Shown here piece by piece: positions 10,987-55,084 of a DNA stretch of 64,000 nucleotides (positions are counted from its first letter, which is position 1; every line of letters begins with the position of its first letter). This stretch comes from Nitrospirota bacterium (GTDB taxonomy: Bacteria > Nitrospirota > Thermodesulfovibrionia > UBA6902), in NCBI GenBank assembly GCA_016213935.1, contig JACQZG010000009.1:647-64646 (forward strand), read 5' to 3'. Made by a program: the position numbers and the translations under genes. Under the pieces are notes generated by a model that had not been told where the DNA came from, did not search any database, and worked only from the letters and a program-made list of their open reading frames with translations.

Positions 10987-10988
10987 TT

Positions 10989-12602: not shown

Positions 12603-12733
12603 GGCCTTCAAAAAGCATTTGTATAAGAGTATTACATGTGCGGCACAAAATACAACAGGAGAGGCGCGGATTTGTTGAAGTGATCGTTCCGGAAGGCGAG
12701 AAAACGGATGATCAGATACAGGTTCCCGGTGAT

Positions 12734-27586: not shown

Positions 27587-28327
27587 TTACATGTACATTC
27601 CGCCGTTGACATGTATAGCCTGGCCGGTTATATAGTCCGAATCTTTTGAAGCCAGGAAGACACAGGCATTAGCCACGTCTTCAGGGAGGCCGAACTCTCT
27701 AAGGGGAATGGCGTTTTTCATTTCTTCTTTAACCTTTTCCGGAAGGGCGTCTGTCATGGCGGTCTGGATGAAACCCGGCGCAACGGCGTTTATTCTTATG
27801 CCGCGCGCGGCGTATTCTTTAGCGAGCGTCTTTGTCATGCCTATAACGCCTGCTTTTGAAGCGCTGTAATTGACCTGTCCCGGATTTCCGCTGAAGGCCA
27901 CGACCGAAGAAATATTTATGATCTTGCCCGACCTCTGTTTCGACATTATCTTTATTGACTCCCTGCTGCATAGAAAAGTGCCTTTAAGGTTAATATCCAA
28001 TACCAAATCCCAGTCATCTTCCTTCATTCTTATGGCTAGTGAGTCCCTTGTTATGCCGGCGTTGTTGACGAGGATATCAAGCCTTTCGAATTCTTTTGTG
28101 AAAGACCCAAAAGCAGACGCTACGCTCTCCTGATTTGAAACATCGATTTTCAGAGCTATACATTTAACGCCGTATTTCAGGATTTCTTCAACGAGTTCTC
28201 CGGCCTTGTCGATATTGATGTCAGCGATGCAGATACCGGCGCCCTCTCTCGCCATTGCAAGCGCGACAGATCTGCCGATACCCTGGGCTGCTCCGGTTAT
28301 AAGCGCGTTTAAACTCTTGAGTCTCAT
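27587..28327 (-). CDS. fabG: 3-oxoacyl-ACP reductase
   Basis: SDR family: ALITGAAQGIGRSVA ... YSASKAGVIGMTK; it sits in the fab operon. Confidence 0.85.
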   Translation of the reverse strand: MRLKSLNALITGAAQGIGRSVALAMAREGAGICIADINIDKAGELVEEILKYGVKCIALKIDVSNQESVASAFGSFTKEFERLDILVNNAGITRDSLAIRMKEDDWDLVLDINLKGTFLCSRESIKIMSKQRSGKIINISSVVAFSGNPGQVNYSASKAGVIGMTKTLAKEYAARGIRINAVAPGFIQTAMTDALPEKVKEEMKNAIPLREFGLPEDVANACVFLASKDSDYITGQAIHVNGGMYM

Positions 28328-28469
28328 CTTGCCTCCATATTTAATGCTTAAAGTTTACATATTATATAAGTTCATTTTTAAATAGGCAACCGTTGGTTTA
28401 ACTTTATTTATGTGACGCCCGGCGCGAATATCTTATTGTAAAATAAGAATGTTTTTGTATAATTAAGTT

Positions 28470-29117
28470 ATGGGTGGGAAGCCTGTAATTAAAAGACTGC
28501 TGATGCTTACTGTCCTTTTTGCGTTGCTGTCTGCAGTATCTTTCGCTGAAAGCCCTGCCGCAAAGAAGTATCTTGAAATGGGTCTTGAGCTTACGGAAAG
28601 GATGGAATATTCCGGAGCGATCAATGCTTTTCAGCAGGCAATCAAACTCGACCCAGGCTATTCCGAAGCGTATTTCAGGTTAGGTAATGCGTATTATCAG
28701 ATTCACAGATATGCAGAGGCGGCAGACGCTTACAAAATGGCCGTGCGCCTGAACCAGAAACATGAAAAGGCATGCATTGCCCTCGGCGTAATTTCTTCCA
28801 TGCTTGGCAGATATGACGATGCTGTAAGCGCGTTCCAGACCGCCTTAAAGGCAAATCCCAACAACTCTGAGGCGCATTATAATTTGGGAATAATATACGT
28901 TGAAACCGGCAGGAAGGAAGCCGCGGTCGAGGCATATAAGAGCGCTGTGAAGATCCGCCCCGATTACGCAAAGGCGAGATATAATCTTGGGGTGCTGTGT
29001 GTTGAATTGGGAGATAAATTCCTTAAGCTTGCCATCGAACAAAAAACCGCCCTTGAAAAACTTGACAAAGGCCTTGCCGACAGCCTGGGCGATTTGATCA
29101 GCAGTTCCGGATATTAG
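28470..29117 (+). CDS. Secreted TPR-repeat protein
   Basis: Signal peptide followed by four or five TPR units (AYFRLGNAYYQIHRYAEA... etc.). Confidence 0.7.
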   Translation: MGGKPVIKRLLMLTVLFALLSAVSFAESPAAKKYLEMGLELTERMEYSGAINAFQQAIKLDPGYSEAYFRLGNAYYQIHRYAEAADAYKMAVRLNQKHEKACIALGVISSMLGRYDDAVSAFQTALKANPNNSEAHYNLGIIYVETGRKEAAVEAYKSAVKIRPDYAKARYNLGVLCVELGDKFLKLAIEQKTALEKLDKGLADSLGDLISSSGY

Positions 29118-29229
29118 GCTTTTCATCGGCAGGAGCCCTTGGCAGTCCGCAGGCACCGCTAATTCTGTATATAAACCATGTCAACCCGTCAACTACAAAA
29201 AATAATTATATAATTGTATTATAAGTTCA

Positions 29230-30741
29230 ATGTATAACTTTAACAGCCTCAAGTTCAAAATTTCCTTCGTTACTTTTCTCCTTATCTCCATAATAATGTC
29301 GGCAACCACATACAGGGATATCAAGTTGACAGAGCAAAAACTCATCAAAACGCAGCAGGAGAAGACTGTCCTCCTGTCTGACAGGATAGCTCACGGGATA
29401 ATGGTACTGATGCTGAAGAACAGGTGGCAGGAACTTCAGGCCATGATGCAGAATCTTGTAAAGGACAGCAATGAACTTAAGGAGATACGAATATTCCTTC
29501 CCACTGACGGGACAATAGTTGTATCCTCTGAAGAAAAAGAAATCGGGACAAAGATATACGCTGAGGATTTAATAAATTACAATAAAGGGAATTATGAGGA
29601 AGCTTTTTTGATAAATAAAGATGATTCCATTTATGCTTCAAAACTGACGCTTTTAAAAAACGCTCCTGCGTGTTTCAGGTGCCACGGGACAGAAAAGGAT
29701 GTGCTCGGAGTTATGGATGTCGAGCTCTCGCTTTTGAATGTGCATAACGCAATCGATGATTTCACCAAAGAGCATATCACGGATGCGTTTATCGGTTTTA
29801 TCATGTTAATGGGCACATTCCTCTTCTTGGTCGCGATCATGATTGACAGGCCTGTTAACAGGATGGTCAACACCATCAGAAGATTGGAGAAGGGGGATTT
29901 CTCAGCCAGAATGAACATCAGGTCTAAAGACGAGTTCGGGCTTCTCGCGGCCAGCTTTGACAATATGGTCGAGGCGCTTGAATCCGCAAAAAAAGAGCTT
30001 GAGCTTACCCATGAGATCAAGATGGAGAGGGCGGCAAAACTCGCAACTATCGGGGAGGTTGTTGCGGGCATTGCTCATGAGATAAAGAATCCTCTTACCG
30101 GAATAAGCTGCGCGGTGCAGCTTCTGCAGGTGGACATGAGCGAAGATGACAAGAACAGGGATGTCACTGAAAAGATACTGAGCCAGGTAAAGAGGCTTGA
30201 CAGGACAGTGAAAGACCTCCTTAGTTACGCCAAACCGAAGGCGGCAAAGTTTTTGCCTGCCAATATAGGCGAAGTTATTGACAGGGCAGTATTCCTTGTA
30301 TATCCGGAGGCAAAAAAACTTAACGTGAAAATCAATGCAACCGTTGCGCAAGACCTTCCTGATATCGTTATGGATACTGACCAGATGCAGCAGGTTGCGC
30401 TTAATTTGATGATAAACGCTCTGCAGGCTATGCCGGAGGGGGGCATACTGAATGTCAGCGTCTATCAGAAAAAATACAATGAAGTTCGCGATGAGTTGAA
30501 GTCCCCATTAAACTGTGAGAATGTTCTTGTTATGTCTTTTGAAGACACCGGCAAAGGGATCTCACAGGAGGACATGGAATATATTTTTGAGCCCTTTTTT
30601 ACCAGGAAATCAAAAGGGTCGGGGCTCGGGTTGTCCATAACGCAGAAGATCGTCCGTGAGCATGGCGGGGTGATTACATGCAGAAGCGCTCTTGGCAAAG
30701 GTTCTTTTTTTACGATATACTTGCCGATAACAAAGAAATAG
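29230..30741 (+). CDS. Sensor histidine kinase with periplasmic c-type-heme (CXXCH) sensor domain, HAMP, HisKA and HATPase
   Basis: TM1, ~150 aa periplasmic domain containing PACFRCHG, TM2, a HAMP domain, the H-box AHEIKNPLTGIS and the G-boxes GSGLGLSI. The sensor resembles Tll0287-like heme-c PAS-type sensor domains. Confidence 0.8.
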   Translation: MYNFNSLKFKISFVTFLLISIIMSATTYRDIKLTEQKLIKTQQEKTVLLSDRIAHGIMVLMLKNRWQELQAMMQNLVKDSNELKEIRIFLPTDGTIVVSSEEKEIGTKIYAEDLINYNKGNYEEAFLINKDDSIYASKLTLLKNAPACFRCHGTEKDVLGVMDVELSLLNVHNAIDDFTKEHITDAFIGFIMLMGTFLFLVAIMIDRPVNRMVNTIRRLEKGDFSARMNIRSKDEFGLLAASFDNMVEALESAKKELELTHEIKMERAAKLATIGEVVAGIAHEIKNPLTGISCAVQLLQVDMSEDDKNRDVTEKILSQVKRLDRTVKDLLSYAKPKAAKFLPANIGEVIDRAVFLVYPEAKKLNVKINATVAQDLPDIVMDTDQMQQVALNLMINALQAMPEGGILNVSVYQKKYNEVRDELKSPLNCENVLVMSFEDTGKGISQEDMEYIFEPFFTRKSKGSGLGLSITQKIVREHGGVITCRSALGKGSFFTIYLPITKK

Positions 30742-30744
30742 GGG

Positions 30745-32145
30745 GTGGCTGGAGTGCAAAGCGTCAAGATACTTGTTGTTGATGACGAGGAACTCATCAG
30801 ATCCTCAATAAAACAGTACCTCGAAAAAGAGGGGCATGAAGTCCTGACCGAAGGAACGGGAGAGGACGGTCTTAAGACATACAGGGCCGAACTCCCGGAT
30901 ATGGTATTTCTCGACCTTCATATGCCCGGGATAAACGGGATGGAGGTTTTGGAGGCAATTAAAAAAATAAACAAAGATACCGTTGTCATAATAATCACGG
31001 CTCACGGCGCGGTTGAGACAGCGGTATCCGCCATAAAACTCGGAGCGTTTGATTTCATAGAAAAGCCTTTTGAGTTCAGCCGGTTGTCAATTTTAATAAA
31101 AAAGGCCCTTGAAACTGTTGACCTCAAGAAAGAGGTAAATTTTTTACGGGGCGAGCAGCATCAGAAGTACAGGTTTGAAAGCATTATCTGTGAGTCCGAA
31201 ATAATGAAGAATATTATTTCGCTTGCCAAAAAGATAGCGGAAAGCGACGCAAACACGGTTTTAATACAGGGAGAGAGCGGGACCGGCAAGACCCTCATAT
31301 CAAGGGCAATTCATTACCACAGCGCGAGGGCTTCTAAACCTTTTGTCGAGATAACATGCACCGCGTTGCCCGAGACGCTTGTCGAAAGCGAGCTTTTCGG
31401 GTATGAGAAGGGAGCATTCACTGACGCTAAATCGGCAAAGAAGGGGCTTTTTGAACTGGCTGACGGAGGGACAGTCTACCTTGATGAAATAGGCGATATG
31501 AAGCCTTCCACACAGGCCAAGTTCCTTAAAGTTATTGAAGAGAAGGTCTTTATGAGGATCGGCAGCCTGAAAGAGACATCTGTTGATGTCAGGATCATCG
31601 CAACGACAAACAGGAACCTGAGGGAAGAGGTTATGAAGGGCAATTTCAGGGAGGATTTATATTACAGGCTTAATGTAATACCCATGGAGTTTCCCGCCTT
31701 GAGGAACAGAAAGGAAGATATATTGCCTACGGCCATGTATTTTCTTGAAACGATGAGGAAAGAGTGCAGAAGAAATATTACCGGCATCTCCAAAGATGTT
31801 CAGGGCCTTTTTTTAAAATACAACTGGCCCGGCAATATCAGAGAGTTGAAGAATGTTATAGAGAGGGTTTTTATTCTCGGGATCGAAGGGCAGCTTCTAC
31901 CTGAGCATCTTCCCCTTGAAATTGCCGGGGTCGGCAGGGAGGCTCCGGTTTTGGGGTCAGTTCATGATCACGATGAATTCAGGTTCCCTATTTCGGATGA
32001 CGGCATATCCATTGAAGAAGTTGAAAAAGAATTCATTATTCAGGCCCTTCGCATGACCGCAGAGAATCAAACAAAAGCGGCTAAACTTCTCGGCCTTTCA
32101 AGGGATGCCCTCAGGTACAGGATGCAGAAGTTCAAACTTCTTTGA
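30745..32145 (+). CDS. Sigma-54-dependent response regulator (NtrC/AtoC family: REC, AAA+ sigma-54 activator, Fis HTH)
   Basis: REC (ILVVDDEELIR...D at FLDLHMPG), Walker A GESGTGKTL, the GAFTDA motif and a C-terminal HTH (AAKLLGLSRDALRYRMQKF). GTG start; it follows the kinase stop by 3 nt. Confidence 0.9.
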   Translation: MAGVQSVKILVVDDEELIRSSIKQYLEKEGHEVLTEGTGEDGLKTYRAELPDMVFLDLHMPGINGMEVLEAIKKINKDTVVIIITAHGAVETAVSAIKLGAFDFIEKPFEFSRLSILIKKALETVDLKKEVNFLRGEQHQKYRFESIICESEIMKNIISLAKKIAESDANTVLIQGESGTGKTLISRAIHYHSARASKPFVEITCTALPETLVESELFGYEKGAFTDAKSAKKGLFELADGGTVYLDEIGDMKPSTQAKFLKVIEEKVFMRIGSLKETSVDVRIIATTNRNLREEVMKGNFREDLYYRLNVIPMEFPALRNRKEDILPTAMYFLETMRKECRRNITGISKDVQGLFLKYNWPGNIRELKNVIERVFILGIEGQLLPEHLPLEIAGVGREAPVLGSVHDHDEFRFPISDDGISIEEVEKEFIIQALRMTAENQTKAAKLLGLSRDALRYRMQKFKLL

Positions 32146-32174
32146 CCGTCTGCGGAACATATTGAAGTTTCATG

Positions 32175-34043
32175 TCACTGGGTTTTTTTTATGTAATTGC
32201 CTATCGCGGCTGCGACAACGTCCTTTCTCAGGGCTGTAAGGTTATGGTCATTAGGGTACAAGGCGAGGCCTTCATCAAGTACTGATTTCGACTTCTCATA
32301 ATAGATAAGGGAATTTTTTGGGTCGATTTCTCCAAGCCTGTAGTAAATCAATCCTTCGAGATTATACGAAGGAAGCCCCGGCCTCCTTATCTTCTCTTTC
32401 GCATTCCATAGCAGGAAACTATTTATAAAATCCATGTTCTCGGCAGGGTTTAAAGCGGCGTTAAGAGCTTTTCTGAACATATAATCAGGTTCAGCCCAGT
32501 TTTTCAAATAGATATTTTTTGTTGCCGGGAGAATTTGAGTTTCATCGAGGGCCTCCCCATTCATAAAGGCTTCTTTGTACTGTCCGTATTTCCTGTAATC
32601 GATAAATGTTTTTACGGTATAGGATGAGAGCCCCAGATAGAGCACTGAGAAGAATATAAGTATTGCCGCAGTCGCCTTGTTTCCGGTGCGAATTTCTTTT
32701 ACTCTCGTTTCATCGGATGTAACCATAAACAGCAGTATTATAAACAGGAGAAAGTGAGAGGCGGATAATTCCAGAGGGTATTCGACCATCGTATGCATGA
32801 GCACAGGGATAAGCAGCATAGCATATGCAAAAGTATTACTTACGCGGCCTGCTTTATACAGCATCTTGAAGATCCCAAACAGCGCGAAACCTAAGGCAAG
32901 CATTCCTGCTATCCCGCATTCGGCCAAAATATTAAAAAACTCATTATGAGGATGGCTTATGAATTCATTGTAAACCATTCCCTTGTACAGGGGATTTTCG
33001 GAGGAGACTTTTGCTTTTTTGTGCATAAAAACACTGCTGAAATTAGAGTATCCGTAGCCGAATAAGGGTTTATCCTTGAACATTTCATATGAGGTTTCGA
33101 AGAGAATCAGGCGTTCGACATAGGAACGCTGTGTTATGTCGGAAAGCCATTTGACTTTTTCCTTGGCGGTGCTGTCAGCGCTTTCAACCAGCCCTTTTGG
33201 GCCTGTCTTTGTGCCTGACACATAAAATCCGCAAGCTGTGCCGATAAAAAATATCATGATCCATATTGCTATATATTTTTTTGTCCGCAGATATGCAGAA
33301 TGGTTGGAAATCAAGAGCGCCAAAATGGCCAGCGCCAATCCTATAAGCCCAATCCTTGAATTGGCAAGGAACAGCCCTCCCGCAAGCGGCATAGCAGAGA
33401 TTAAAAATAGTGCCTTCTTTGCCTTTCCGAACAGTTTAAACCTTTCGGTTGTAATAAGGTGAACGCTTATCGCTATACCTGTAGCCGCCCATGAAGCAAA
33501 GAGGTTCTTCTGCTGGAAAGCGCCGCCGACATCAGGTATATATTTGGTCACTTTTACCATGGCAAGAGCGAAACTGATGCCAAAAGAATGTATAGCGTAG
33601 GAATTGACCAGAGCTTTCAATATGACCATGGTTGATTCAATAACTGCTGACATGAGTATCACTATAAGAACAGTTACTTTTTCTCTCTCACTGAATCTGA
33701 ACTGGTGAAGGCTTAACCATATTATTACTGCGGCAATCACGCGCAGGGATTGAATTATAAATATTTCCCTATTTAGGATTGGATTAAATACGGCTGTAAT
33801 CAGGAGGAGAGATGTGTAGGCTGCGGCATATTTAAAATACGACGGCACGATTAGTGCTTTTCTGCTTGTAACGAATGCAGCTGCAATAAGGATCAATGTG
33901 AAGATGCCTATCCAGACTATATATTCCCGAGGATGCGCAAGGGTGCCCCCCATATTCGGGATGGCAATATGCATAATAACGAGCAGGATAACGGATAACA
34001 CCGTAATCGGTAAATATTCAAACGCCTTTTGTGATTTTGTCAA
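32175..34043 (-). CDS. O-antigen ligase (Wzy_C) family polytopic membrane protein with C-terminal TPR-like soluble domain
   Basis: ~10 TM helices and HPHNEFFNILAE (conserved His of the WaaL/PglL type). The C-terminal ~200 aa are helical and repeat-like. It is a paralog of the upstream gene. Confidence 0.55.
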   Translation of the reverse strand: MTKSQKAFEYLPITVLSVILLVIMHIAIPNMGGTLAHPREYIVWIGIFTLILIAAAFVTSRKALIVPSYFKYAAAYTSLLLITAVFNPILNREIFIIQSLRVIAAVIIWLSLHQFRFSEREKVTVLIVILMSAVIESTMVILKALVNSYAIHSFGISFALAMVKVTKYIPDVGGAFQQKNLFASWAATGIAISVHLITTERFKLFGKAKKALFLISAMPLAGGLFLANSRIGLIGLALAILALLISNHSAYLRTKKYIAIWIMIFFIGTACGFYVSGTKTGPKGLVESADSTAKEKVKWLSDITQRSYVERLILFETSYEMFKDKPLFGYGYSNFSSVFMHKKAKVSSENPLYKGMVYNEFISHPHNEFFNILAECGIAGMLALGFALFGIFKMLYKAGRVSNTFAYAMLLIPVLMHTMVEYPLELSASHFLLFIILLFMVTSDETRVKEIRTGNKATAAILIFFSVLYLGLSSYTVKTFIDYRKYGQYKEAFMNGEALDETQILPATKNIYLKNWAEPDYMFRKALNAALNPAENMDFINSFLLWNAKEKIRRPGLPSYNLEGLIYYRLGEIDPKNSLIYYEKSKSVLDEGLALYPNDHNLTALRKDVVAAAIGNYIKKTQ

Positions 34044-34044
34044 T

Positions 34045-35805
34045 TTATTTAATTTCCTTTGCGTCGGCAGATTTCATCTCTTGTTTTAACTTAACCATAC
34101 TGCTCCAGCCAGGGTAAAGATCCAGCCCTTCCTCAAGAAGTTTATATCCCTCTTCCCTTCTTCCTACGACAAACAAAGCAAATGACCCTCTTTCGTATAC
34201 ATGCGGATGCGGGAACACTTCTTTCTCCTTAATGAGAAAGTCAGCATAGTCTTCTATTAACTTCTTGTCGCCCCTCATAAAACCGATCCTGTAATTGGCA
34301 TCAAAATAAAATCTCTTTGCAAGCTGTTCAAGGTACATATTGCCGGTTGCTGGTTCAACAAGTTCAGGCCTGACAATTCCTATAATAAGCAAGTCCTGAT
34401 ATTTTTTCATGGCTCTCTGGGCAATGAGGGTTGTTATTGACAGATACGATATAATTACAAAGAGCGTGGCGGCCGCAGTAAACGCGCTTGCCCGTAAGAG
34501 TCCGGCTGGTCTAATCTTAATTTTCTTTACAAAAGATGACGACGGCAGGTAAAGCAGAAAGAGAAAGAGCGCCCAGTGGGGCATGGACTGATAAAGGGAA
34601 TAACTCACTTGTGTATCAAATGCTATCGGGAACAAAAAAGCCGCGTAAGTTCCGCCCTGTTTTCTTCCAAGTTTTATAAGGCATACCGTAAAGGCGGCTC
34701 CAATCAGCATCAGCCCGGCACTGCCCATTAGGCCGGACTCTACCGTCCTGTACAAAAACTCGTTATGCGGATGAGAGGTAAAGGCAGCTTCATAGGGATA
34801 TTCAGGGTGTTCTTTTGCAAGCCTGCTTCGGTAATGCATGAACCTGCTGCCGAAACTGCCGGGTCCGTGGCCGGTCAGCGGCCTGTCTTTTATCATGTTT
34901 ACAGCAGTAATGTACATCGGTACCCTCATGTCCGTAACCTCGTCTCCTGCTACACTCTCCATCGTCATCCCGATCTTTTGTCCTACGGAACTGAGCGCCG
35001 AGTCCCGTTTGTAGTAATACTTCTCAGCCGCCACACTGCCTGCTATTCCAAATACTATCATCAGCAACCATATGGCGAGATAGAGCGCCTTCTCTTTGTA
35101 ACTCCGATACCTTGCCCATAAGAGTATAAGTGTTCCGGCGCCGGCCTCTATAACTCCTGCCCGTGAGCCCGTCAGAAAAATGATAAAGCACATGAGCATA
35201 ACAAAAAGATAAAAAAGAGTTTTAAGCCATCTGCCGAATCCCTTAAAAATATCTCCGGTTAAGAGATAAAGCGATATCGCAATCGTGGTAGCAAGGTATG
35301 ATGCAAGTAGGTTCTGGTGCTGGAAATTGCCAAATATTTTGTTCGGGGCAGGCGCGACTATAAGAAATATGGCAGTATCAGGATTAAAATACTGAAACAG
35401 GCTTATCAGTGCCTCAGTCATGCCGGAGATAACTATCGCGTATAAAAGCCGTTCCTTCTCATCATTTGAAAACTCAAACTGATGGAGGGAAGCAAAAAAT
35501 ATTATCCCGCCGATAAGCCCGGCTGTCTCAAATATGAAGACATGACGGTCTATTATCGGATTAAAAATTGCTGACGAAAGCGATGATAAGAGGAATAGAA
35601 TTATATATAAGGAAATGCGCGGGACTGAGATGTCCCATTGATTGAATATATGTATCACTGAAAGAAGTACAAGTCCTGACAGCGTTATCCAGACAAGATA
35701 TGCCGCAGGCAGTACAAGGGGGGCGCCGAAGTTCCTGATGGTTATGTGAGAAACCGCCAGAAAGAGCAGCGCGAGAACCCATAAATGGATTTTCTTTGTC
35801 ATCAA
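34045..35805 (-). CDS. O-antigen ligase (Wzy_C) family polytopic membrane protein with C-terminal soluble domain
   Basis: LTGSRAGVIEAG and HPHNEFLYRTVESG motifs typical of O-antigen ligase/O-oligosaccharyltransferase proteins, plus ~10 TM helices. Confidence 0.6.
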   Translation of the reverse strand: MMTKKIHLWVLALLFLAVSHITIRNFGAPLVLPAAYLVWITLSGLVLLSVIHIFNQWDISVPRISLYIILFLLSSLSSAIFNPIIDRHVFIFETAGLIGGIIFFASLHQFEFSNDEKERLLYAIVISGMTEALISLFQYFNPDTAIFLIVAPAPNKIFGNFQHQNLLASYLATTIAISLYLLTGDIFKGFGRWLKTLFYLFVMLMCFIIFLTGSRAGVIEAGAGTLILLWARYRSYKEKALYLAIWLLMIVFGIAGSVAAEKYYYKRDSALSSVGQKIGMTMESVAGDEVTDMRVPMYITAVNMIKDRPLTGHGPGSFGSRFMHYRSRLAKEHPEYPYEAAFTSHPHNEFLYRTVESGLMGSAGLMLIGAAFTVCLIKLGRKQGGTYAAFLFPIAFDTQVSYSLYQSMPHWALFLFLLYLPSSSFVKKIKIRPAGLLRASAFTAAATLFVIISYLSITTLIAQRAMKKYQDLLIIGIVRPELVEPATGNMYLEQLAKRFYFDANYRIGFMRGDKKLIEDYADFLIKEKEVFPHPHVYERGSFALFVVGRREEGYKLLEEGLDLYPGWSSMVKLKQEMKSADAKEIK

Positions 35806-36140
35806 CTATTAACCCAGCTAAAAATACCAGAATCCGTAATCCATGTCAAAAAGGGGGTATAAATTTAATGTCATGGAAACCCCGGTGTTACAGATGACCT
35901 TGATTTTTTTTGACATCAAATATTAATATACATTATAAAATGCTGAACAATCTTGTTAATGAGAAAGTCTGCTTACTAATTAGGCACTATATTGCAGATT
36001 CTCCGAAGTTGCGTGAAATAACGCTCCCGATTGGTTGAGTCTAATATTTTTGGAACCAAAAATTAAGTATTAAACGCCGTGTTGTGTTACAACTTGTTGA
36101 TTTATAAGTTAAATATTTTTTAACTGCAACATTGAGAATC

Positions 36141-36156
36141 TGGTATGCTAATTGCT
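36141..36156 (+). promoter_or_regulatory. Candidate sigma-54 (-24/-12) promoter upstream of the first OmcS-like gene
   Basis: TGGTATGCTAATTGCT gives GG-N10-GC spacing with the TTGC -12 element, ~150 nt upstream of the ATG at 36304. The sigma-54 activator gene is 4 kb upstream. Confidence 0.5.
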
Positions 36157-36303
36157 TTATAAATAGCCGTGAGGATTAATCAAATGAAAGATAAACAAAA
36201 AATAAATACAGGAGGGTTGCCTATGGAACACAAAACCAAATCCATTTTAGATGGAGAATCAACACTATACTTTATTAAAAGTATAACACCAAAAGGAGGA
36301 ATT

Positions 36304-37299
36304 ATGAAAAAAGTACTGTTCACAATGTTCGTAGTACTTGCGGCCGCGTTCATGCTGTATGGAATCGCAGACGCAATCTCCGGCGTGTGCTCCGGATGCC
36401 ACACAATGCACAACAGTCAGGACGGCGCTGCAGTAAACGGTTCAGGCCCCGCAGACATCCTGCTCAAGAGCGACTGTATGGGCTGTCACACCACAGCGTC
36501 AGCAGTTGGACCGAGGGTTGATAATGCGACCTTGCTGTCAGCAGGCTCATTTGCAGATGCCTTTGTAACATCAGACACAAACACCCACAACGTTGAGGAC
36601 CTCGTAGGATTTAATGCCGGCGGCGCTGACGACATTCTTACCTCTAACGATCCACCGGGAGGAAGCGCGGCTGTTTTAACCAAGTTCTCTGGTGCTAACC
36701 AGTTGAAGTGCGCCGGTAGTAACGGCTGTCACGGTAGCCATGATAGTAAAGCTACAAGCTGGGCAGGCATACAGGGTTATCACCATGCAGGCGGGTCAAT
36801 CTATAAGTTCCTTGAGGTTGCTACTGACAACGAAGGCGCAGGCACCGCTGTTGCAGGCACAAAAGATTCAACCTACGAATCAGGCGGAGCAACCGCATCC
36901 AAACATAATATTTACGTGTCCGACGCGGCAACAGGCATCAGCGCATTCTGCAATAACTGCCATGATGTCTTCCACGGCGCGGCGACCACTGACCTGACCA
37001 CCAACGGCCTTTGGAACCGCCACCCGACCGATATATCAATTGCTACTTACCTTGGGGCTTCGGGTGTAACAGTTGATTATGTGAATAACCCGTTTGCATT
37101 CACAGCGGCATACGCAACCACATTAAGCACAACCTCGGCAACAGGTTATGACGCAACTAATGGTTATGTAATGTGTCTGTCTTGCCATCGCGCACACGCG
37201 TCTGAGTACGCAGACCTGCTCAGGTTTAACTATGCTTCACAGAGCGCAGGCGGCGGCGGTACAACAGGATGTCTCGGATGTCACGTGAATCAGAGGTAA
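36304..37299 (+). CDS. OmcS-like hexaheme c-type cytochrome (nanowire-type), paralog 1
   Basis: Strong RBS (AAAGGAGGAATT-ATG) and a signal peptide (MKKVLFTMFVVLAAAFMLYGIADA). The mature N-terminus [17 protein letters not shown] matches the OmcS CEGCHTMHNS start. C-terminal MCLSCHRAHASEYADLLRFNY matches OmcS NCLSCHRAHASGFDSMTRFN. Heme sites: CSGCH, CMGCH, C-x5-CH (CAGSNGCH), CNNCH, CLSCH, CLGCH. Confidence 0.75.
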   Translation: MKKVLFTMFVVLAAAFMLYGIADAISGVCSGCHTMHNSQDGAAVNGSGPADILLKSDCMGCHTTASAVGPRVDNATLLSAGSFADAFVTSDTNTHNVEDLVGFNAGGADDILTSNDPPGGSAAVLTKFSGANQLKCAGSNGCHGSHDSKATSWAGIQGYHHAGGSIYKFLEVATDNEGAGTAVAGTKDSTYESGGATASKHNIYVSDAATGISAFCNNCHDVFHGAATTDLTTNGLWNRHPTDISIATYLGASGVTVDYVNNPFAFTAAYATTLSTTSATGYDATNGYVMCLSCHRAHASEYADLLRFNYASQSAGGGGTTGCLGCHVNQR

Positions 37300-37308
37300 T
37301 TTAATCCG

Positions 37309-37373
37309 CAAGGGGAACCCGTTGGGGTTCCCCTTGCATCTGAGTGGTTAAGCAACTCTTAACCACTCAGATG
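37309..37373 (+). other. Two consecutive perfect stem-loops between OmcS-like paralogs (terminator/attenuator or RNA processing element)
   Basis: CAAGGGGAACC-cgt-GGTTCCCCTTG, immediately followed by CATCTGAGTGGTTAAG-caact-CTTAACCACTCAGATG (16 bp stem). No clear U-tract follows. Confidence 0.5.
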
Positions 37374-37397
37374 CAAGATACGAAAGCAAGGCATATT

Positions 37398-38609
37398 ATG
37401 ATTAAAATAATCATAAAAGAAATGGCAAGAATAAATAATACCAATAGGTATGTTTTAATATTTATTGCAGCCTTGGCTTTAGTTGCTTCTTCAGTAAATG
37501 CAAATATTACAGGCGTATGTTCAAACTGCCATACAATGCATAATAGTCAGGACGGAGCAGCTGTTGTTGGGTCAGGCCCAAACGATGTTCTTTTAACTTC
37601 AGATTGTCTTGGTTGTCACGGCCAGGGCGGCAGCCAGAAGATAATCAGTATCGGGGGAAGTGAGATTCCCCAAGTATTGCATTCTGACGGCACAGGCGAC
37701 CTTGCAGGAGGAAACTTTAATTATATCGGCACACTCGGCGACAATAGAGGCCATAACATCGTTGATCTCGTTAATGGAGATGATGTGTTAGATATACCGC
37801 CCGGGGCTGAATATGGCGAGCATGCCAATCCCGCAAAGATGGTCACTGATTCCGTGCTTACATGCGCAGGCTCTAACGGTTGCCACGGGTTTAGGGCGAT
37901 TGGAGGGAGTTCGAATCTTCAGGCATTAAAAGGGGCGCACCATAAGAATATTACAACTGATTCCACAAGCGGATTTGATGACGATTACAACAGCTATAGA
38001 TTTCTCAGGAAAGTGAAGGGGCATGAGAATGACGGGCAGGTAAATTCCTCAACAAAATGGCAGAATGCCGATGCCAATAACCATAATGAATATTTCGGCG
38101 CTACGTCTCCTCTTGAGTTTGACGCAAACTGCGCAAAGTGCCATTCAAATGCGCCGTCAGCCAACATTGTTCCCCCGCAAAATACTATGAGCGGCTTCTG
38201 CGGCACATGCCATATGAATTTTCATCTCTTAACAGGAACAGAAACCTCTGATATGGGCATAGGAGATTCAACTGTATCTCCATTCAGGAGGCACCCGACT
38301 GATGTTGTGTTGCCTGGGGCAGGTACAGAATATAATAACTATACATCGTACAGTGTGGAGGCTCCTGTAGCGAGGGGCGTGGTTCCTGACAGTATGAGCA
38401 ATGTCGTAACACCCGATAACAGCGGCGTACAGGGTGCGATTGTAATGTGCCTTTCCTGCCATAAGGCGCACGCATCTCAATATCCCGATATGCTGAGGTG
38501 GGATTATGACGGTATGGTTGTCGGCACAACCGGGGCTTCAGCCTTTTTTTCCATTGTCGATAGAAACCGCAGGTATTTATTGCATCTCAGCTTATTTATT
38601 GAAGAATAA
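37398..38609 (+). CDS. OmcS-like hexaheme c-type cytochrome, paralog 2
   Basis: Signal peptide ([27 protein letters not shown]). [26 protein letters not shown]-x5-CH (CAGSNGCH), [14 protein letters not shown] and [23 protein letters not shown]. The start is ambiguous (ATG at 37398 or 37422). Confidence 0.7.
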
Positions 38610-38647
38610 TTGACTCATTATTTTTTTTTTAATATTATTAGTAAGTT

Positions 38648-39628
38648 ATGCGTTCAATAAGACTTCAAACAAGAAAGATAATGACATTGATTAAACATGT
38701 TTTAAATCCATCTGTCATTATTGTTTTATTTGTTTTATTTGGAACAGTCAGACCTGTTTCATTAAATGCCCAGGGGCCTCTTGTCAGGTATTATATGGCA
38801 TTAGAGTATGACGAAAATGATGAGAGACTTGTCAGGCCCTCTTTTGCGCAGTATGAAAATGTAATGAATGAAATTTATGTAATTGATGCCAGGCAAAGGG
38901 TGCTGATATATACTTCTGACCTTTTTCCGGTTCTTTCACTCGGCAAGAGCCGTAAGATACTGAATCCCGAAGGTTTGACAGTTGATTCTAACGGCAATCT
39001 TTATGTTGTTCAGACAGCCACGCCTGAAGATTTGAGAAACAGGGTTTCCGTTTACAATGCCTGCCTCAAATGGGAGCGTGATATCTTTTTTGAGGGCTTT
39101 GAAGGCGCTGATAAATTTGTGCCGTATCGCCTTGCAAAAGATTCAAAGGGCAATCTTTTTGTTGCAGGAATACGCTTCCCGGGAGTTCTGATATTTGATG
39201 CTGATTATAACTTGGTAGAAATAATATCTCCGCAGGAAAATGATAGGAAGGCGTTGATTATGAATGTCCATATTGATGACACGGGCCGGATATATCTTGT
39301 AAGCGAGGAAGAAGGGCATATTTATGTTTATGATGAAAATCGAAAGTTCATCTATCAGTTTGGGGAAAAAGGCGGCAGTTCCGGCAAGTTGAGCAGGCCG
39401 CGTGCCGTGGCAGTTGATAATAACAGGGGATGGCTTTATGTCGTTGATTATATGAGACACACGGTCAATACATATGACCGCAACGGCATGATGTTATTCG
39501 AGTTTGGCGGAATGGGATGGGGAGAAGGCTGGTTCAGGTTCCCTACAGACATTAGCGTTAATAAGGAAGGCGATGTGATGGTTACAGACCTTTTTAACCA
39601 GAGAGTACAGATCTTTAAGCCTTACTGA
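38648..39628 (+). CDS. Secreted NHL-repeat beta-propeller protein
   Basis: Signal peptide and repeated NHL-like units (SNGNLYVVQ..., RPRAVAVDNNRGWLYVVDYMRHTVNTYDRNG, VMVTDLFNQRVQIFKP). Confidence 0.8.
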   Translation: MRSIRLQTRKIMTLIKHVLNPSVIIVLFVLFGTVRPVSLNAQGPLVRYYMALEYDENDERLVRPSFAQYENVMNEIYVIDARQRVLIYTSDLFPVLSLGKSRKILNPEGLTVDSNGNLYVVQTATPEDLRNRVSVYNACLKWERDIFFEGFEGADKFVPYRLAKDSKGNLFVAGIRFPGVLIFDADYNLVEIISPQENDRKALIMNVHIDDTGRIYLVSEEEGHIYVYDENRKFIYQFGEKGGSSGKLSRPRAVAVDNNRGWLYVVDYMRHTVNTYDRNGMMLFEFGGMGWGEGWFRFPTDISVNKEGDVMVTDLFNQRVQIFKPY

Positions 39629-39642
39629 CGGTTGAAAATTTC

Positions 39643-41244
39643 ATGTCAATATTATTTTGCAATTTGAGGCGGTTTTTCAGAAATAAAAATTTGGTGTTGT
39701 GTATTATTATTTTTATATACGGCTGCTCCATCGTTTTAAATGATAATAGTGTAACTGAAGACCAGAAGCCTCCCGATTACAACAGCCAGATAACGCTTTA
39801 TTTTAATGGCCATGAGAAGACATCTCTTGATTTGGAATTTCTTTTAACCGGGGTTGACATGGTTTTTGTTGATGGAACATCAATAGGGATTCTTAAAGGG
39901 CCTGTAACATTGAGGTCATCTGAAGTTAAGGGCAGGCAGGTGCGCCTTGGCGAGATATATGTCCCTGAAGGCGAATGCAAAGAAGTCCGTTTGCATATCA
40001 CTAAAGCATCGATAATAACCCCTGACGGCACTGCATCACTTTCAATTTCTTCAGATACGGTATCCATGCCTTTTAATCTTGTCATTAAAAGGAGGCAAAA
40101 TTCCACGCTATTTTTAAATTGGAACCCTGACGGGTCTGTGACAGATAACTATCTTTTTACCCCTTTGTTCTATTTGGGAAAAGAGGCCCCAGACCTTATT
40201 GGTCAGCTTCTGTATGTTACCAATGAAGATTCTAATAATGTGTCGGTCATAAACCGGTATTACGGCAAGGTCGTCGGAACCGTGCTCGTAGGCAAAAGGC
40301 CGAGGGGTATTGCCGCTGGATTGAAGGAAGACCGGTTAAGGGTATATGTTGCAAATTCAGGTTCAAACAGCGTATCGGTAATTGATCCCAATACAAATAC
40401 AGTAGAACATGAAATCCCTTTAAGATTCGGTAGGGAACCGGTCGCGATTGCTGTTGCGAAAGGGCCTTTTGGGAGAGAACTCGTTTTCGTGGCTAATTAT
40501 GCTTCCGGCTCGGTATCTGTGATAGACCCTTTATCTTTTCAGGAGCTTGAGAGAGTCGGGGTCGGAAACGGGCCTGTGGCTGTAGCCGCGGATCCTCCCG
40601 TCGAATTTTATTCTGGTTCCGCATCTCTCAGCATTGAAGAGGTTAACTTAATAAAAGATTATAGAGGCAAATTTGTTAATGTCTATGTTGCCAATAAAGA
40701 GTCAAACAGCGTATCAGTAATTCGAATGGACATGCTTAATAACAGGGTGGAAGATGTTCAGAATGTCGCTGTTGAATGGAGCCCTGTCGCATTGTCCGTT
40801 GACTTCAAAAGAGGCAAAGTCTATGTCGCAAATTACGGCTCTGACAGGCTGTCTGTCATAGATATCGTATCGCTAATACGCGGGGATGGTTCTGCAGAAA
40901 TAAGCTCAATTGAAAATACCGGCCGTTACACAGTGGGAGTCGCAACCAATCCATTCATTGACAGGCTCTACCTGCTTAAATCCGTCTCGTCCGAAGTTTT
41001 ATTTTTAAACCCTTATTCTGATGCAGGAAATGATATATTTTCTGTATCAGGCTCTGTAATGGGTATTGCCGCAACAGGTCTTTCGCCGAGATCATTACAA
41101 TTTGACCTTCAATCCAGAAATCTCTTTGTGGTTAACAGCGGCTCCGACAGCGTTTCAATCATTGACGTCACTACCCGTAATGAAAAAAAGAGAATTTCCG
41201 TGGGGCGTAATCCTTACGGCGTAACAATGTTCTCGGTGAAATGA
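39643..41244 (+). CDS. YVTN-family beta-propeller repeat lipoprotein
   Basis: Lipobox (IFIYGC). Repeated ~40 aa units of the YVTN type (LYVTNEDSNNVSVINRYYGKV, VYVANSGSNSVSVIDPNTN, VFVANYASGSVSVIDPLSF, VYVANKESNSVSVI, LFVVNSGSDSVSIIDVTT). Confidence 0.75.
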   Translation: MSILFCNLRRFFRNKNLVLCIIIFIYGCSIVLNDNSVTEDQKPPDYNSQITLYFNGHEKTSLDLEFLLTGVDMVFVDGTSIGILKGPVTLRSSEVKGRQVRLGEIYVPEGECKEVRLHITKASIITPDGTASLSISSDTVSMPFNLVIKRRQNSTLFLNWNPDGSVTDNYLFTPLFYLGKEAPDLIGQLLYVTNEDSNNVSVINRYYGKVVGTVLVGKRPRGIAAGLKEDRLRVYVANSGSNSVSVIDPNTNTVEHEIPLRFGREPVAIAVAKGPFGRELVFVANYASGSVSVIDPLSFQELERVGVGNGPVAVAADPPVEFYSGSASLSIEEVNLIKDYRGKFVNVYVANKESNSVSVIRMDMLNNRVEDVQNVAVEWSPVALSVDFKRGKVYVANYGSDRLSVIDIVSLIRGDGSAEISSIENTGRYTVGVATNPFIDRLYLLKSVSSEVLFLNPYSDAGNDIFSVSGSVMGIAATGLSPRSLQFDLQSRNLFVVNSGSDSVSIIDVTTRNEKKRISVGRNPYGVTMFSVK

Positions 41245-41288
41245 GATTTTCCAAATAAACGGTTACTATTGTTAATCAGCAGGGAACA

Positions 41289-43529
41289 GTGAGTAATAGA
41301 CGTTTAATAAACGCTCTTCTTTTTTTGATTTTATTTATCGGCGGTTCCTCGGCAGTCTTCGCTGACCTGAACGGAAACGCAAGCATTGACTATACCTCGT
41401 TTCAGGAGGATAGGGGCGATGCCAGTATTACCCAAAACGATACTCAGAAGCGTCTAAATTTCTATTTCACTAAACCGATAACCTCCCTTCTTTCTTACCA
41501 GCTAACTTTGAGGGCTGAGATTTCCGATTCTGATTCCAGTGATTCACAGGGCGCTGATTATACCTCTCTTAAGGAAGTCTATGAACCCGGAATAGATTTT
41601 TCGCTTAAAAATGTTATGTACGAATTCGATTCGGGGTTTCATCACAGAGATGAGCTTTATTCTAATTCAGGACAGGCTTATGATAACAAAAGAATCACTG
41701 ATTTTTTCTACAGCCGGTTTGCTGTCAGCCCTCTTAATCTCCCCACTTTTTCCGCTGAACTTAGCAGGATTAAGGAAAGCGATAACATCATGCTCGACAG
41801 GCAAAACAGTATTTATTTTTTGAGGTCATCTTATGAACTGCCTTCTCCCGAGCTTGACTTCAGGGCAAATCTCAATTATTCACATGCAGAAGAAGAGAAC
41901 CCCGGGAAAATATTGTATAAAAACGTCAGCGATGCTTACTCCGGTGATTATCAGTTATCTGATTCACGCATTTTTTTGTCTGGGAAAATAATACTAAATG
42001 GAAGTTACAGGGGCAATTTCAGCAGTGCCGACAGCACGAGTTATTCCTCAGATACCGGATATGTCCTCTTTGAGCGCACCAAACTCGGCGGCCTCCACGC
42101 AAAAGGAACGGCGCTGAATCCTGACGTTGACAGTTTGCCTTCTGAAACAGCTCTTGCTGATGATAATTATATTCTTTCGACATCAATTAATCTCAGCATA
42201 TCAGGTTCTGACGAATATCATAATATAGGGATTTGGGTGCCTTCTGACGATTCTGTCGAGAAACTGTACATTTACGTTAACAAAGATGTAACAGGCGATT
42301 TTTCTTTAAAAAGCATCTCGAACTGGAAAGTCTATAAGAGCGATTTTAACCTGGCAGGCACATGGCTTCCGGTAACGATCAGCAGTGTTTCGGTTTCTCT
42401 ATTTGATCTTGCAAACACCATTTATCGTTACGAAATCGAATTTTCAGCTCCGCATAATGCGAGATATTTCAAAGCGGTTAACATGGATGTCTCCGATATT
42501 TCCAATGTTGCTGTCACAGAGATAGAGGCTTACGGGTCAGAACTCATTCCTGATTCCGGAATATTGACGAGCTCTTCTAACGCACTCGGCCAGAGGCTGG
42601 ATTTTTTATCGGTCTTTCAGCCATTAAGCAAATTCAGATTTAGTTTTAATTATTCGATTGATAAGTCTGACCAGAATCCGTCATCTGTTTTTAGCTCGAT
42701 CACATCTCTTTTTACAAGCATTTTTTCCAAATCAAGGAGCGAAGAAGATCAATCTGATTCCAGCAGCACAATCAATAAAGGCCTCGCACTTAATGCAAAC
42801 TGGTTAACTCATAAATTTCTCACGACCAATTTTCGTTTTCAGCGGAATGAATCATATGACAATGCCTTTAAGACTGATAGGGCGGCTACTACTTATGAAC
42901 TATCTTTTAATTCATCGCCGATTGAAACGCTTAACGCAAGTTTTAGTATGGTAAGAGGGGATAGTTATCAATTTGAAGTAAAAGAGTCGACATATGATTC
43001 GGCAATATTAAGCCTTGGCACCCGATTATACAGGGATTTGAATATGGTGACGGATATAGGATATTCACGGTCTGACTCCGTAAGCGGGGGAGATTCAACT
43101 TCAAGGTATATTTCAGGTAGCATTGATTCGGTTTTTACAGATAAATTGGAGGGTAGCTTGAGCTACAATATAAACTGGAAATCGTCTGGGGAATCAGAAG
43201 TTCAGTCAAAAAGCAGTTCGGCAAAGATAACCTATCGTCCAGGCAGATTTGTTAATTTATCCTGTGATTTTAATTATTCTTCTAATGACGCAGGTTCCGC
43301 CATGTCGGAAATAATAACTGCGGAATGGCGGCCTGTCCCCGTTTTGCAGTTGAATGCCAATTACCAGCACTCAAGTACAAGCTCAGCGAGTATTACAAAG
43401 GATGTTTTTTCGGGCAACGGCACATGGCATATTAAAAAGTTTTTACATGCGCAGCTTTCATTTTTATATGAGAAAGAAGGCGAAAGCACGGAACAGAATG
43501 TCAGTACCGGCATGAGATTATTGTTTTAA
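41289..43529 (+). CDS. Large Ser/Asp-rich secreted protein, predicted outer-membrane beta-barrel (porin-like)
   Basis: Signal peptide (ALLFLILFIGGSSAVFA). 746 aa with alternating polar/aromatic beta-strand-like segments and a C-terminal ...TGMRLLF (terminal Phe, typical of OM beta-barrels). Confidence 0.5.
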   Translation: MSNRRLINALLFLILFIGGSSAVFADLNGNASIDYTSFQEDRGDASITQNDTQKRLNFYFTKPITSLLSYQLTLRAEISDSDSSDSQGADYTSLKEVYEPGIDFSLKNVMYEFDSGFHHRDELYSNSGQAYDNKRITDFFYSRFAVSPLNLPTFSAELSRIKESDNIMLDRQNSIYFLRSSYELPSPELDFRANLNYSHAEEENPGKILYKNVSDAYSGDYQLSDSRIFLSGKIILNGSYRGNFSSADSTSYSSDTGYVLFERTKLGGLHAKGTALNPDVDSLPSETALADDNYILSTSINLSISGSDEYHNIGIWVPSDDSVEKLYIYVNKDVTGDFSLKSISNWKVYKSDFNLAGTWLPVTISSVSVSLFDLANTIYRYEIEFSAPHNARYFKAVNMDVSDISNVAVTEIEAYGSELIPDSGILTSSSNALGQRLDFLSVFQPLSKFRFSFNYSIDKSDQNPSSVFSSITSLFTSIFSKSRSEEDQSDSSSTINKGLALNANWLTHKFLTTNFRFQRNESYDNAFKTDRAATTYELSFNSSPIETLNASFSMVRGDSYQFEVKESTYDSAILSLGTRLYRDLNMVTDIGYSRSDSVSGGDSTSRYISGSIDSVFTDKLEGSLSYNINWKSSGESEVQSKSSSAKITYRPGRFVNLSCDFNYSSNDAGSAMSEIITAEWRPVPVLQLNANYQHSSTSSASITKDVFSGNGTWHIKKFLHAQLSFLYEKEGESTEQNVSTGMRLLF

Positions 43530-43534
43530 TAATA

Positions 43535-44164: not shown

Positions 44165-44182
44165 ACACATTTATATAATATA

Positions 44183-44779: not shown

Positions 44780-44819
44780 TTTTTACTTGCTGTGTGTAAT
44801 ATAATGTGTGTAATATAAT

Positions 44820-53621: not shown

Positions 53622-53637
53622 TGGCATATGTTTTGCT
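53622..53637 (+). promoter_or_regulatory. Candidate sigma-54 (-24/-12) promoter
   Basis: CTGGCATATGTTTTGCTAT is a near-consensus TGGCAT-N5-TTGCT, 23 nt upstream of the receiver gene at 53660. Confidence 0.6.
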
Positions 53638-53659
53638 ATAGTATTTATAGGCAAATACT

Positions 53660-55068: not shown

Positions 55069-55084
55069 TATAGGGGGTGGAAAT

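Follow-up and report, generated by a model that had tools for sequence, protein, structure and literature searches.

Why should a pair of genes for O-antigen-ligase-family proteins stand back to back with a cluster of nanowire-type cytochrome genes, and on what would the encoded enzymes act? The question is raised by a 64-kb stretch (hereafter the window, meaning the whole 64,000 nucleotides) of contig JACQZG010000009.1 from a Nitrospirota bacterium of the Thermodesulfovibrionia. Two open reading frames on its minus strand (34045..35805 and 32175..34043), which we label ligA and ligB, lie where the first-pass annotation of this DNA had placed them and, as it had described, diverge from an operon that begins with OmcS-like genes, with a 498-bp intergenic region (35806-36303) common to ligA and the first of these (Table 1). 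The explanation that we find best overall, held tentatively and at a little short of even confidence, is that they encode a co-transcribed pair of PglL-family O-oligosaccharyltransferases (O-OTases) that was derived from a pilin locus and specialised through its tetratricopeptide repeat (TPR) domains, and for which the proteins exported from the neighbouring cluster are the best candidate acceptors. What is new here is the lineage-specific placement beside an OmcS-like cluster and the mosaic of a shared core with a private TPR domain in ligA.

Placement of ligA and ligB within the ligase superfamily

For ligA, the ATG at 35802 is the likelier start, in agreement with NCBI protein P0001 from a metagenome-assembled genome ('Nitrospirae bacterium'), to which the resulting 585-residue form is 100% identical; the alternative TTG at 35805 gives 586 residues. 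Given that ligB starts 1 nt past the ligA stop, the two very probably form a single operon; their products are 30% identical over the full length. Both exceed the Pfam gathering cutoffs for Wzy_C (cutoff 31.7 bits; ligA 78.4 bits, E=6.5e-22; ligB 72.8 bits, E=3.3e-20) and Wzy_C_2 (cutoff 28.5 bits; 38.6 bits, E=1.5e-9, and 41.7 bits, E=1.6e-10), which bears out the earlier assignment to the WaaL/PglL-type ligase family, and the ligase motifs then noticed are present as FLTGSRAG and SHPHNEF in ligA and as LANSRIG and SHPHNEF in ligB. In addition, ligA matches PglL_A (PF15864; cutoff 25 bits) with 28.7 bits (E=1.2e-6) at residues 157-182; in O-OTases of the PglL type this motif belongs to the periplasmic loop before transmembrane (TM) helix 6. 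Pfam annotates PglL_A as 'protein glycosylation ligase' and describes Wzy_C_2 as a 'membrane-bound polymerase'. An NCBIfam assignment to IctB was disregarded as sub-threshold (44.5 bits against a cutoff of 366).

Across 30 diverse family members N164, S213, R214, R293, P308, G311, G313, H346, N347, G357 and P564 (ligA numbering) are invariant, and ligB retains the equivalents N180, S229, R230, R311, H366 and N367. H346 of ligA aligns with the THSHN motif of the oligosaccharyltransferase 9RMK and the EHAHN motif of the WaaL ligase 7TPG. Published work on WaaL and PglS assigns these Arg and His positions to pyrophosphate binding and catalysis, and AlphaFold modelling of PglS gives 13 TM helices, a C-terminal periplasmic domain and a cleft with the active site, with the same catalytic His and Arg (PMC12800693). 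By homology with WaaL, PglL and PglS, the conserved Arg and His residues of ligA and ligB would bind a glycan linked to undecaprenyl pyrophosphate (Und-PP) and catalyse its en-bloc transfer. Such an architecture is common and not new, since an exhaustive HMMER search found 1811 cluster representatives at E<=1e-3, the top matches being mostly 550-620 residues long. Word-indexed protein searches gave 19 and 36 family members, and a metagenome contig scan with an alignment of the ligA type (type A, below) returned only two PJEL contigs already in our sample and one weak partial match. The names that relatives bear in NCBI and other databases range from 'pilin glycosylation ligase domain-containing protein' through 'O-antigen ligase' to 'O-antigen polymerase' and 'Wzy polymerase domain-containing protein'.

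AlphaFold2 models (pLDDT 90.6 and pTM 0.89 for ligA, built with 30 family sequences; pLDDT 86.0 for ligB) have the same architecture, with 13 membrane helices in each protein where about ten had first been estimated. In the ligA model an 84-residue loop (264-347) ends in the HPHNE motif, and a long last membrane helix (434-473) leads into a bundle of helical hairpins (483-584); in ligB the corresponding TM helix spans 455-494 and is followed by helices between 501 and 621. The soluble tail past the last membrane helix thus measures about 112 residues in ligA and 128 in ligB, short of the roughly 200 of the first-pass annotation, whose description of it as TPR-like is borne out by Foldseek matches to the three-TPR domains 4cgv, 1elw and 6fd7 (prob 0.99-1.0, TM ~0.7). 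For ligA these are the three-repeat domains of RPAP3 and HOP (prob 1.0, TMt ~0.7, rmsd ~3.2 Å) and for ligB that of RPAP3 (6fd7; prob 0.99, TMt 0.68), and the family profile also matches consensus TPR proteins at positions 520-580. Lys and Arg residues of ligA number ten in the short loops assigned to the cytoplasm against two in the short periplasmic loops, a distribution that fits an N-in, C-out topology and so suggests that the catalytic loop and the TPR domain lie in the periplasm. In such an arrangement, the large periplasmic loop would carry the conserved Arg residues (R214 and R293) and the HxHNE histidine H346 of ligA, and the final membrane helix would set the three-TPR-like domain next to the active site.

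Which branch of the superfamily this architecture belongs to was judged mainly from a profile of the 30 family members, which among our sequence searches of the PDB was the only query to reach 9RMK and 7TPG. The profile matches 9rmk_A ('Oligosaccharyltransferase', 610 residues), which on the position of its motif is probably the Neisseria PglL/PglO enzyme, with E=3.6e-25 from position 45 to 570, C-terminal domain included, and WaaL 7tpg_B with E=7.1e-13 over positions 206-385 only (that is, the Wzy_C core); ligA and ligB thus appear to be closer to a solved O-OTase than to WaaL. On the basis of this match, the PglL_A motif, the thirteenth TM helix with its periplasmic TPR domain and the nearest paralogs, which lie in pilin loci, we favour PglL-type protein O-OTases over WaaL and consider it likely that the two enzymes move an Und-PP-linked glycan en bloc to Ser or Thr residues of an exported periplasmic protein. 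Three results speak against this assignment: a single-sequence phmmer search of the PDB with ligA gave no match; in ligB a string similar to PglL_A is present (GAFQQKNLFASW) and Pfam reports no match; and the ligB model, compared with Foldseek, has no significant WaaL match, its core retrieving FtsW only (prob 0.91). 9RMK was not returned by Foldseek, probably because the structure library ends in April 2026.

Were ligA and ligB instead WaaL-type ligases, they would pass O-antigen or another Und-PP polymer to lipid A-core or some other lipid and remodel the outer-membrane surface where the cytochrome filaments emerge. WaaL 7tpg is indeed the sole significant whole-fold Foldseek match of ligA in the PDB (E=1.6e-6, TMt 0.64), the Wzy_C domain is held in common, 'O-antigen ligase' is among the database names, and a distant family member with Wzy_C and Wzy_C_2 (P0144) adjoins lptF/lptG. 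Set against this are the core-only profile match, the PglL_A motif of ligA, the absence of TM13 and of a periplasmic TPR domain from the WaaL chain of 403-413 residues, and the failure of the ligB model to retrieve any WaaL. Nor do five to six paralogs in each genome, most of them at pilin loci, fit WaaL, and the window is devoid of LPS (lipopolysaccharide) core, O-antigen, wzx/wzz and lpt genes. As the first-pass annotation had observed, LPS genes are missing: Pfam scans of the 52 window open reading frames found no LPS-core or glycosyltransferase gene, nor were LPS-core or O-antigen genes found in the flanks of three related loci (L001, L091 and L092). We regard a WaaL function as very unlikely.

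More improbable by far is a pair of Wzy-like polymerases building an exopolysaccharide matrix that anchors the cytochromes, a reading to which the polymerase names of some relatives and the Pfam description of Wzy_C_2 lend some colour. In structure and in sequence the nearest known proteins are a ligase and an O-OTase, not polymerases, the closest paralogs are linked to pilins, and no flippase, co-polymerase, export or glycosyltransferase gene is found nearby (for the flippase, by the Pfam scans of the window). The surface polymer that had been offered as an alternative in the first-pass annotation likewise finds no support, there being no linkage to wzx, wzz or glycosyltransferase genes in the window or in related loci. 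Because glycosyltransferase genes are not found nearby, the glycan donor of a PglL-type pair would be made elsewhere in the genome; the only sugar-related gene of the window is a lone NAD-epimerase (22586-23518), and a linked glycosyltransferase block of the kind known from Geobacter was looked for in the window and not found.

Pilin-locus paralogs and the mosaic structure of ligA

The closest paralogs of the pair stand in pilin loci (L002, L003, L005 and L086), in which four to five type IV pilin-like genes (~210 residues each) are followed by three to four tandem ligases; the near one-to-one numbers suggest that each pilin-locus ligase has its own pilin. These loci (L002:4412-13651, L003:4440-13578, L005:2375-13647 and L086:2815-9809) are preceded by a response regulator and a kinase. 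A tree of the ligases resolves three subfamilies, namely type A (ligA and the second pilin-locus ligase, 72-74% identical), a type found only in pilin loci, and type B (ligB and the last pilin-locus ligase, 47-50% identical). As each member of the pair groups with a pilin-locus ligase, ligA-ligB may be a copy of the A+B pair of the pilin locus, or the reverse. In the former case, the pair would stem from duplication of an A-type and a B-type gene that stand behind the type IV pilin genes of these genomes, followed by insertion in one Thermodesulfovibrionia lineage between a sigma-54 regulator and the OmcS-like promoter region.

This kinship raises the possibility that ligA and ligB still glycosylate pilins or pseudopilins encoded elsewhere, their site by the cytochromes being an accident of where the duplicate landed. 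Besides the grouping of each enzyme with a pilin-locus ligase, the excess of pilin paralogs over ligases in the pilin loci and the NCBI paralog name 'pilin glycosylation ligase domain-containing protein' favour such a role. However, a six-frame search of the 64-kb window for prepilin motifs found no pilin-like gene, five assemblies, with ligA identity as low as 60%, retain the position beside the cytochromes, and the TPR domains have stayed apart by locus despite exchange in the core (see below). We consider continued service to pilins quite unlikely.

The TPR domain is where ligA parts from its pilin-locus twin: identity is 71-90% in the membrane core and catalytic loop and 43-44% in the TPR domain, a drop that is not seen between ligA orthologs from the same type of locus. 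A drop appears also in the DNA of a single genome (L001 against L002), in which approximately 1350 nt from the start are 80-88% identical and the following parts 66% and 55%; the natural breakpoint falls near residues 450-473. In neighbour-joining trees (200 bootstraps), reciprocal monophyly of cytochrome-locus and pilin-locus copies is recovered in 0% of bootstraps from the core (473 columns), whereas from the TPR domain (112 columns) the copies of each locus type are monophyletic with 100% bootstrap. The simplest reading would be an old duplication, after which gene conversion homogenised the core in the sub-lineage of the window while the TPR-coding end stayed distinct.

A shared core with a private TPR domain is the pattern expected if the TPR domain carries a locus-specific function. 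The TPR domain and the periplasmic loops would then select the acceptor, and the enzymes of the cytochrome locus would act on a different acceptor from the pilin-locus copy; given the locus-specific TPR pattern, we think that their acceptor probably does differ from that of the pilin-locus twin, a conclusion that we hold with fair rather than high confidence. In chimeras of Neisseria PglO, targeting of PilE maps to C-terminal segments, and more than the last 247 residues are needed (PMC9239064). The mosaic amounts to a natural 'domain-swap experiment' that points to the seat of acceptor specificity in PglL-family enzymes, a group employed in making bioconjugate vaccines and with acceptor rules that are little understood.

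Cytochromes of the neighbouring cluster as candidate acceptors

The pair stands divergent from omcS-like genes in five related Thermodesulfovibrionia assemblies (the window, L001, L004, L091 and L092), across which ligA identity falls to 60%. The order of omcS-like genes, ligA-ligB, sigma-54 response regulator (RR54), histidine kinase and TPR protein is kept in the window, in L001, in L091 and, as far as its contig reaches, in L092, and L004 keeps the side with the omcS-like genes and ligA-ligB up to its contig end. For comparison we took 80 further OmcS-like loci, 1.18 Mb in all, from other species that belong mostly to the Nitrospirota and Thermodesulfobacteriota. A hidden Markov model of the ligases found a homolog in none of them, even at E<=10, while other members of the window cluster recur: the first NHL beta-propeller (NHL1) in 49, the lipoproteins in 38, the peptidyl-prolyl isomerase (PPIase) in 37, the 746-residue protein in 23 and RR54 in 22. 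Moreover, in about ten Nitrospirota loci the histidine kinase, RR54 and an omcS-like gene follow one another with only the promoter region between the last two (this order was seen in L007, L009, L010, L020, L023, L030, L032, L055 and L069). Given that no other locus has a ligase and that RR54 directly adjoins the OmcS-like gene in relatives, the pair is a lineage-specific insertion between a regulator and its target promoter and not a conserved component of nanowire clusters, and glycosylation by an adjacent ligase would not be general in these clusters.

That cytochromes should be acceptors at all has precedent. Neisseria PglO, which is encoded away from glycan genes, glycosylates the c-type cytochromes CycB, CcoP and CCP (PMC11130364). 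The OmcS and OmcE filaments of Geobacter sulfurreducens show surface glycosylation in cryo-EM maps, thought to insulate the wires and to prevent bundling (PMC9473688; bioRxiv 10.1101/2025.10.22.684050), and in Desulfuromonadia glycosylated filaments correlate with the presence of a block of glycosylation genes that adjoins omcE (bioRxiv 10.1101/2025.10.22.684050). In the OmcS paper of Portela et al., gene clusters and glycosylation are not discussed. Our literature searches found no paper naming a transferase for nanowire glycans and nothing relevant on OmcS together with O-antigen ligase or on Geobacter together with oligosaccharyltransferase.

In the present case it is adjacency that points to the OmcS-like cytochromes, and the position of the ligases has persisted within the lineage. 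We regard it as possible, if on the unlikely side, that the acceptors include these cytochromes, and as doubtful that the pair forms a dedicated O-glycosylation system for extracellular OmcS-like filaments, in which pilin enzymes would have been retargeted by a different TPR domain while their core was still exchanged with the pilin-locus copies. ligB (55% identical to its orthologs), both OmcS-like proteins, the second NHL protein (NHL2) and the 746-residue protein all lie at 46-58% identity, and FabG, the kinase, RR54 and ligA at 75-81% (27587-44779 compared with L001, L092, L091 and L004). Unlike ligA, the kinase, the regulator and FabG, ligB thus evolves at the pace of the exported cluster proteins, which is a weak hint in this context. 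The first OmcS-like protein of the window is itself nearer to that of L004 (58%) than to that of L001 (50%), the reverse of ligA (60% and 80%), a hint that the cytochrome genes may have recombined or exchanged alleles.

Several observations weigh against assigning the cytochromes, or the exports of this cluster at large, to the pair. The five ligase-linked loci are syntenic by descent and amount to one evolutionary event, beside the 80 other loci without a ligase. The Ser+Thr fraction of ligase-linked OmcS-like proteins (0.18-0.22, n=5) does not differ from that of the others (0.187±0.025, n=115), nor does their densest 15-residue Ser/Thr patch (7-8 residues against 6.8±1.2). The promoter of ligA is sigma-70-like and no sigma-54 site faces the gene, so that co-regulation with the cytochromes is not indicated. 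The divergence of the TPR domain shows specialisation and does not identify the acceptor. In L091 and L092, finally, a large protein with PKD, He_PIG and Big_9 domains stands between ligA and the cytochromes as an alternative neighbouring acceptor. The linkage is confined to one lineage of five assemblies, and we find no evidence for a system reserved for the cytochrome filaments as proposed in the first-pass annotation. Special sequons in the ligase-linked OmcS-like proteins were considered and found no support, the Ser/Thr content lying within the range of unlinked proteins. The inserted proteins of L091 (8139-9857, 572 residues, PKD-like) and L092 (2759-6274, 1171 residues; NosD, He_PIG, Big_9 and PKD) lie on the cytochrome strand and look secreted; the window has no such insertion.

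The pair might also consist of broad-spectrum ('general') O-OTases like Neisseria PglL/PglO or Burkholderia PglL, which would modify Ser/Thr within low-complexity stretches of numerous proteins in the periplasm and at the surface, the cytochromes being incidental targets and the gene position without meaning. This would agree with the PglL_A motif, with a match to the solved 9RMK that spans the full length, with the sigma-70-like promoter (which may mean constitutive expression) and with the precedent of PglO, whose targets include cytochromes among dozens of proteins and whose own gene lies away from those for the glycan and for the targets (PMC11130364). Acinetobacter strains, moreover, are reported to carry one pilin-specific and one general O-OTase. 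Yet the three to four further paralogs in the pilin locus of these genomes speak for a subdivision of acceptors, and a locus-specific TPR domain kept despite homogenisation of the core suggests a specific partner. We consider a general O-OTase unlikely, and continue to prefer a specialised pair with the exports of the neighbouring cluster as candidate acceptors.

If the acceptors are pilins or many proteins, the pair represents an ordinary expansion of a known enzyme family. If the system is dedicated to the filaments, it would supply the first named transferase for nanowire glycosylation and would show, by a natural example, that acceptor specificity in the PglL family is set by the C-terminal TPR domain. 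As it stands, ligA and ligB provide a concrete, clonable candidate for nanowire glycan attachment.

The intergenic region reads differently in its two directions (Table 1). The sigma-70-like promoter block of ligA (GCTAAAAATACCAGAATC...CATGTCAAAAA) does not vary between the window, L001 and L004, and direct control of ligA by RR54 was rejected, as no GG-N10-GC site occurs on the minus strand between 27 and 64 kb. Towards the cytochromes, 14 of 15 related loci have a sigma-54 site (TGGYAY-N5-TTGC) at a distance of 90-200 bp upstream of their OmcS-like genes (ten of them at a stricter consensus), and sigma-54 control seems to be general in OmcS-like clusters. The sequence GTGAAATAACGCT (around 36012) is invariant in the alignment of the three intergenic regions, and the box TGCGTGAAATAACGCT is, by its position only, a candidate enhancer-binding site. 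A second good sigma-54 site (CTGGCATATGTTTTGCT, 53622-53638) is found upstream of the cytochrome genes that begin at 54166.

Table 1. Features of the ligase pair, the intergenic region and the adjoining genes (window coordinates)
Feature	Position	Strand	Basis or remark
TPR protein, HAMP histidine kinase and sigma-54 response regulator (RR54)	28470..32145	+	Pfam
ligB, second Wzy_C/Wzy_C_2 ligase paralog, 622 aa	32175..34043	-	
ligB C-terminal helical (TPR-like) domain, ~residues 495-622	32178..32561	-	AlphaFold2 helices and Foldseek
ligA, PglL-type O-oligosaccharyltransferase-like	34045..35802	-	ATG at 35802, giving 585 aa
ligA C-terminal TPR-like domain, residues 474-585	34048..34383	-	periplasmic side inferred from Lys/Arg distribution
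Sigma-70-like promoter of ligA, TTGACA-17-TATTTT with upstream TG	35821..35849	-	promoter scan; function inferred
Conserved box TGCGTGAAATAACGCT, candidate enhancer-binding site	36010..36025	+	~120 bp upstream of the sigma-54 promoter
Sigma-54 promoter TGGTATGCTAATTGC of the OmcS-like operon	36141..36155	+	GG-N10-GC match; conserved in L001 and L004
OmcS-like hexahaem cytochrome 1, candidate acceptor	36304..37299	+	PDB OmcS 6EF8 (G. sulfurreducens), E=3.1e-9
OmcS-like cytochrome 2, candidate acceptor	37344..38609	+	C-terminal haem motif missing relative to orthologs

OmcS-like cytochrome 1 has a signal peptide, five CXXCH motifs and a CAGSNGCH motif. OmcS-like cytochrome 2 diverges at its 3' end (38520-38609) after ...VVGTTGASA and is without the final haem-binding motif G-x-G-C-F-x-C-H-x-x-K-D-G-I, which is kept in the L001, L004 and L091 orthologs; the last haem may truly have been lost, or a frameshift or a faulty assembly may be the cause. 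Downstream of the two genes follow two NHL beta-propellers, the 746-residue protein without a Pfam match, LpoB/GNA1162-like lipoproteins, a PPIase and very large multihaem cytochromes. Within this series, the stretch 41289-47521 (the 746-residue protein, two GNA1162/LpoB-like lipoproteins, an uncharacterised 198-residue protein and a SurA-like PPIase) has the look of a conserved module that exports or assembles the cytochromes, and homologs of the 198-residue protein occur in 37-38 of the 80 other OmcS-like loci. Farther on (54166-63420) stand two more cytochrome modules, which include an NHL protein and a 749-residue multihaem cytochrome; behind each comes a membrane protein of cytochrome b561 type (56187-57077 and 62587-63420). 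Genes for extracellular electron transfer occupy more than 27 kb of the window. At its other end lie a compact cAMP-signalling set (1366-5069; a CHASE2-domain adenylate/guanylate cyclase, a class II phosphodiesterase-like metallo-beta-lactamase protein and a CRP-family regulator) and, on the minus strand (10252-12737), a GspB-like protein with a T2SSB domain adjoining an ExeA/GspA-like AAA protein with a peptidoglycan-binding domain, that is, accessory factors of secretin assembly, other type II secretion genes being absent nearby.

Comparison with known systems

The likeness to WaaL of Cupriavidus metallidurans (7TPG/7TPJ) lies in the GT-C_B membrane fold, to which the Foldseek match of ligA belongs, in a Wzy_C region with conserved Arg and His, and, by homology, in the chemistry of an Und-PP-glycan donor. 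Unlike the shorter WaaL chain, which ends without TM13 or a periplasmic TPR domain, ligA and ligB reach 585 and 622 residues, and whereas WaaL acts on lipid A-core and its genes stand with LPS genes, the window has none of the latter.

With Neisseria PglL/PglO the pair shares Wzy_C and a C-terminal Wzy_C_2 domain, to which ligA adds PglL_A, the alignable HxHN motif (THSHN in 9RMK, probably this enzyme, and SHPHN here) and a gene position away from glycan-synthesis genes. The Neisseria enzyme is known to modify c-type cytochromes and pilin (PMC11130364), and its acceptor targeting lies in the C-terminal part (PMC9239064). The differences are a low sequence identity, a tandem A+B pair with three to four more paralogs per genome in place of one enzyme, and a position beside an OmcS-like cluster, the function here being predicted from sequence.

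Acinetobacter TfpO, PglL and PglS offer a parallel for paralogous O-OTases with divided acceptor specificity (there pilin-specific as opposed to general or ComP-specific), and Harding and colleagues are said to have described, in 2015, a tandem tfpO-pglL arrangement in some strains. The ligases directly downstream of pilin genes in L002, L003, L005 and L086 resemble the pilin-specific O-OTases of Acinetobacter, while the window pair, unlike TfpO, adjoins no pilin gene. To our knowledge, a mosaic of shared core and locus-specific TPR domain has not been described for the Acinetobacter enzymes. In its 13 TM helices and C-terminal periplasmic domain the pair is like PglS (PMC12800693).

The OmcE cluster of Geobacter (bioRxiv 10.1101/2025.10.22.684050) is followed by 15-70 genes for glycosyltransferases, sugar-modification enzymes and exporters, with no mention of an O-OTase or ligase, whereas here the cytochrome is OmcS-like and two O-OTase-like genes stand without any for glycan synthesis. 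The cluster of the window has two multihaem cytochromes, two beta-propellers and a large protein without a Pfam match that is possibly the equivalent of the beta-barrel. In both, a nanowire-type cytochrome cluster is physically linked to glycosylation functions in some lineages and free of them in others, a difference that in the Geobacter case tracks glycosylated as against bare filaments.

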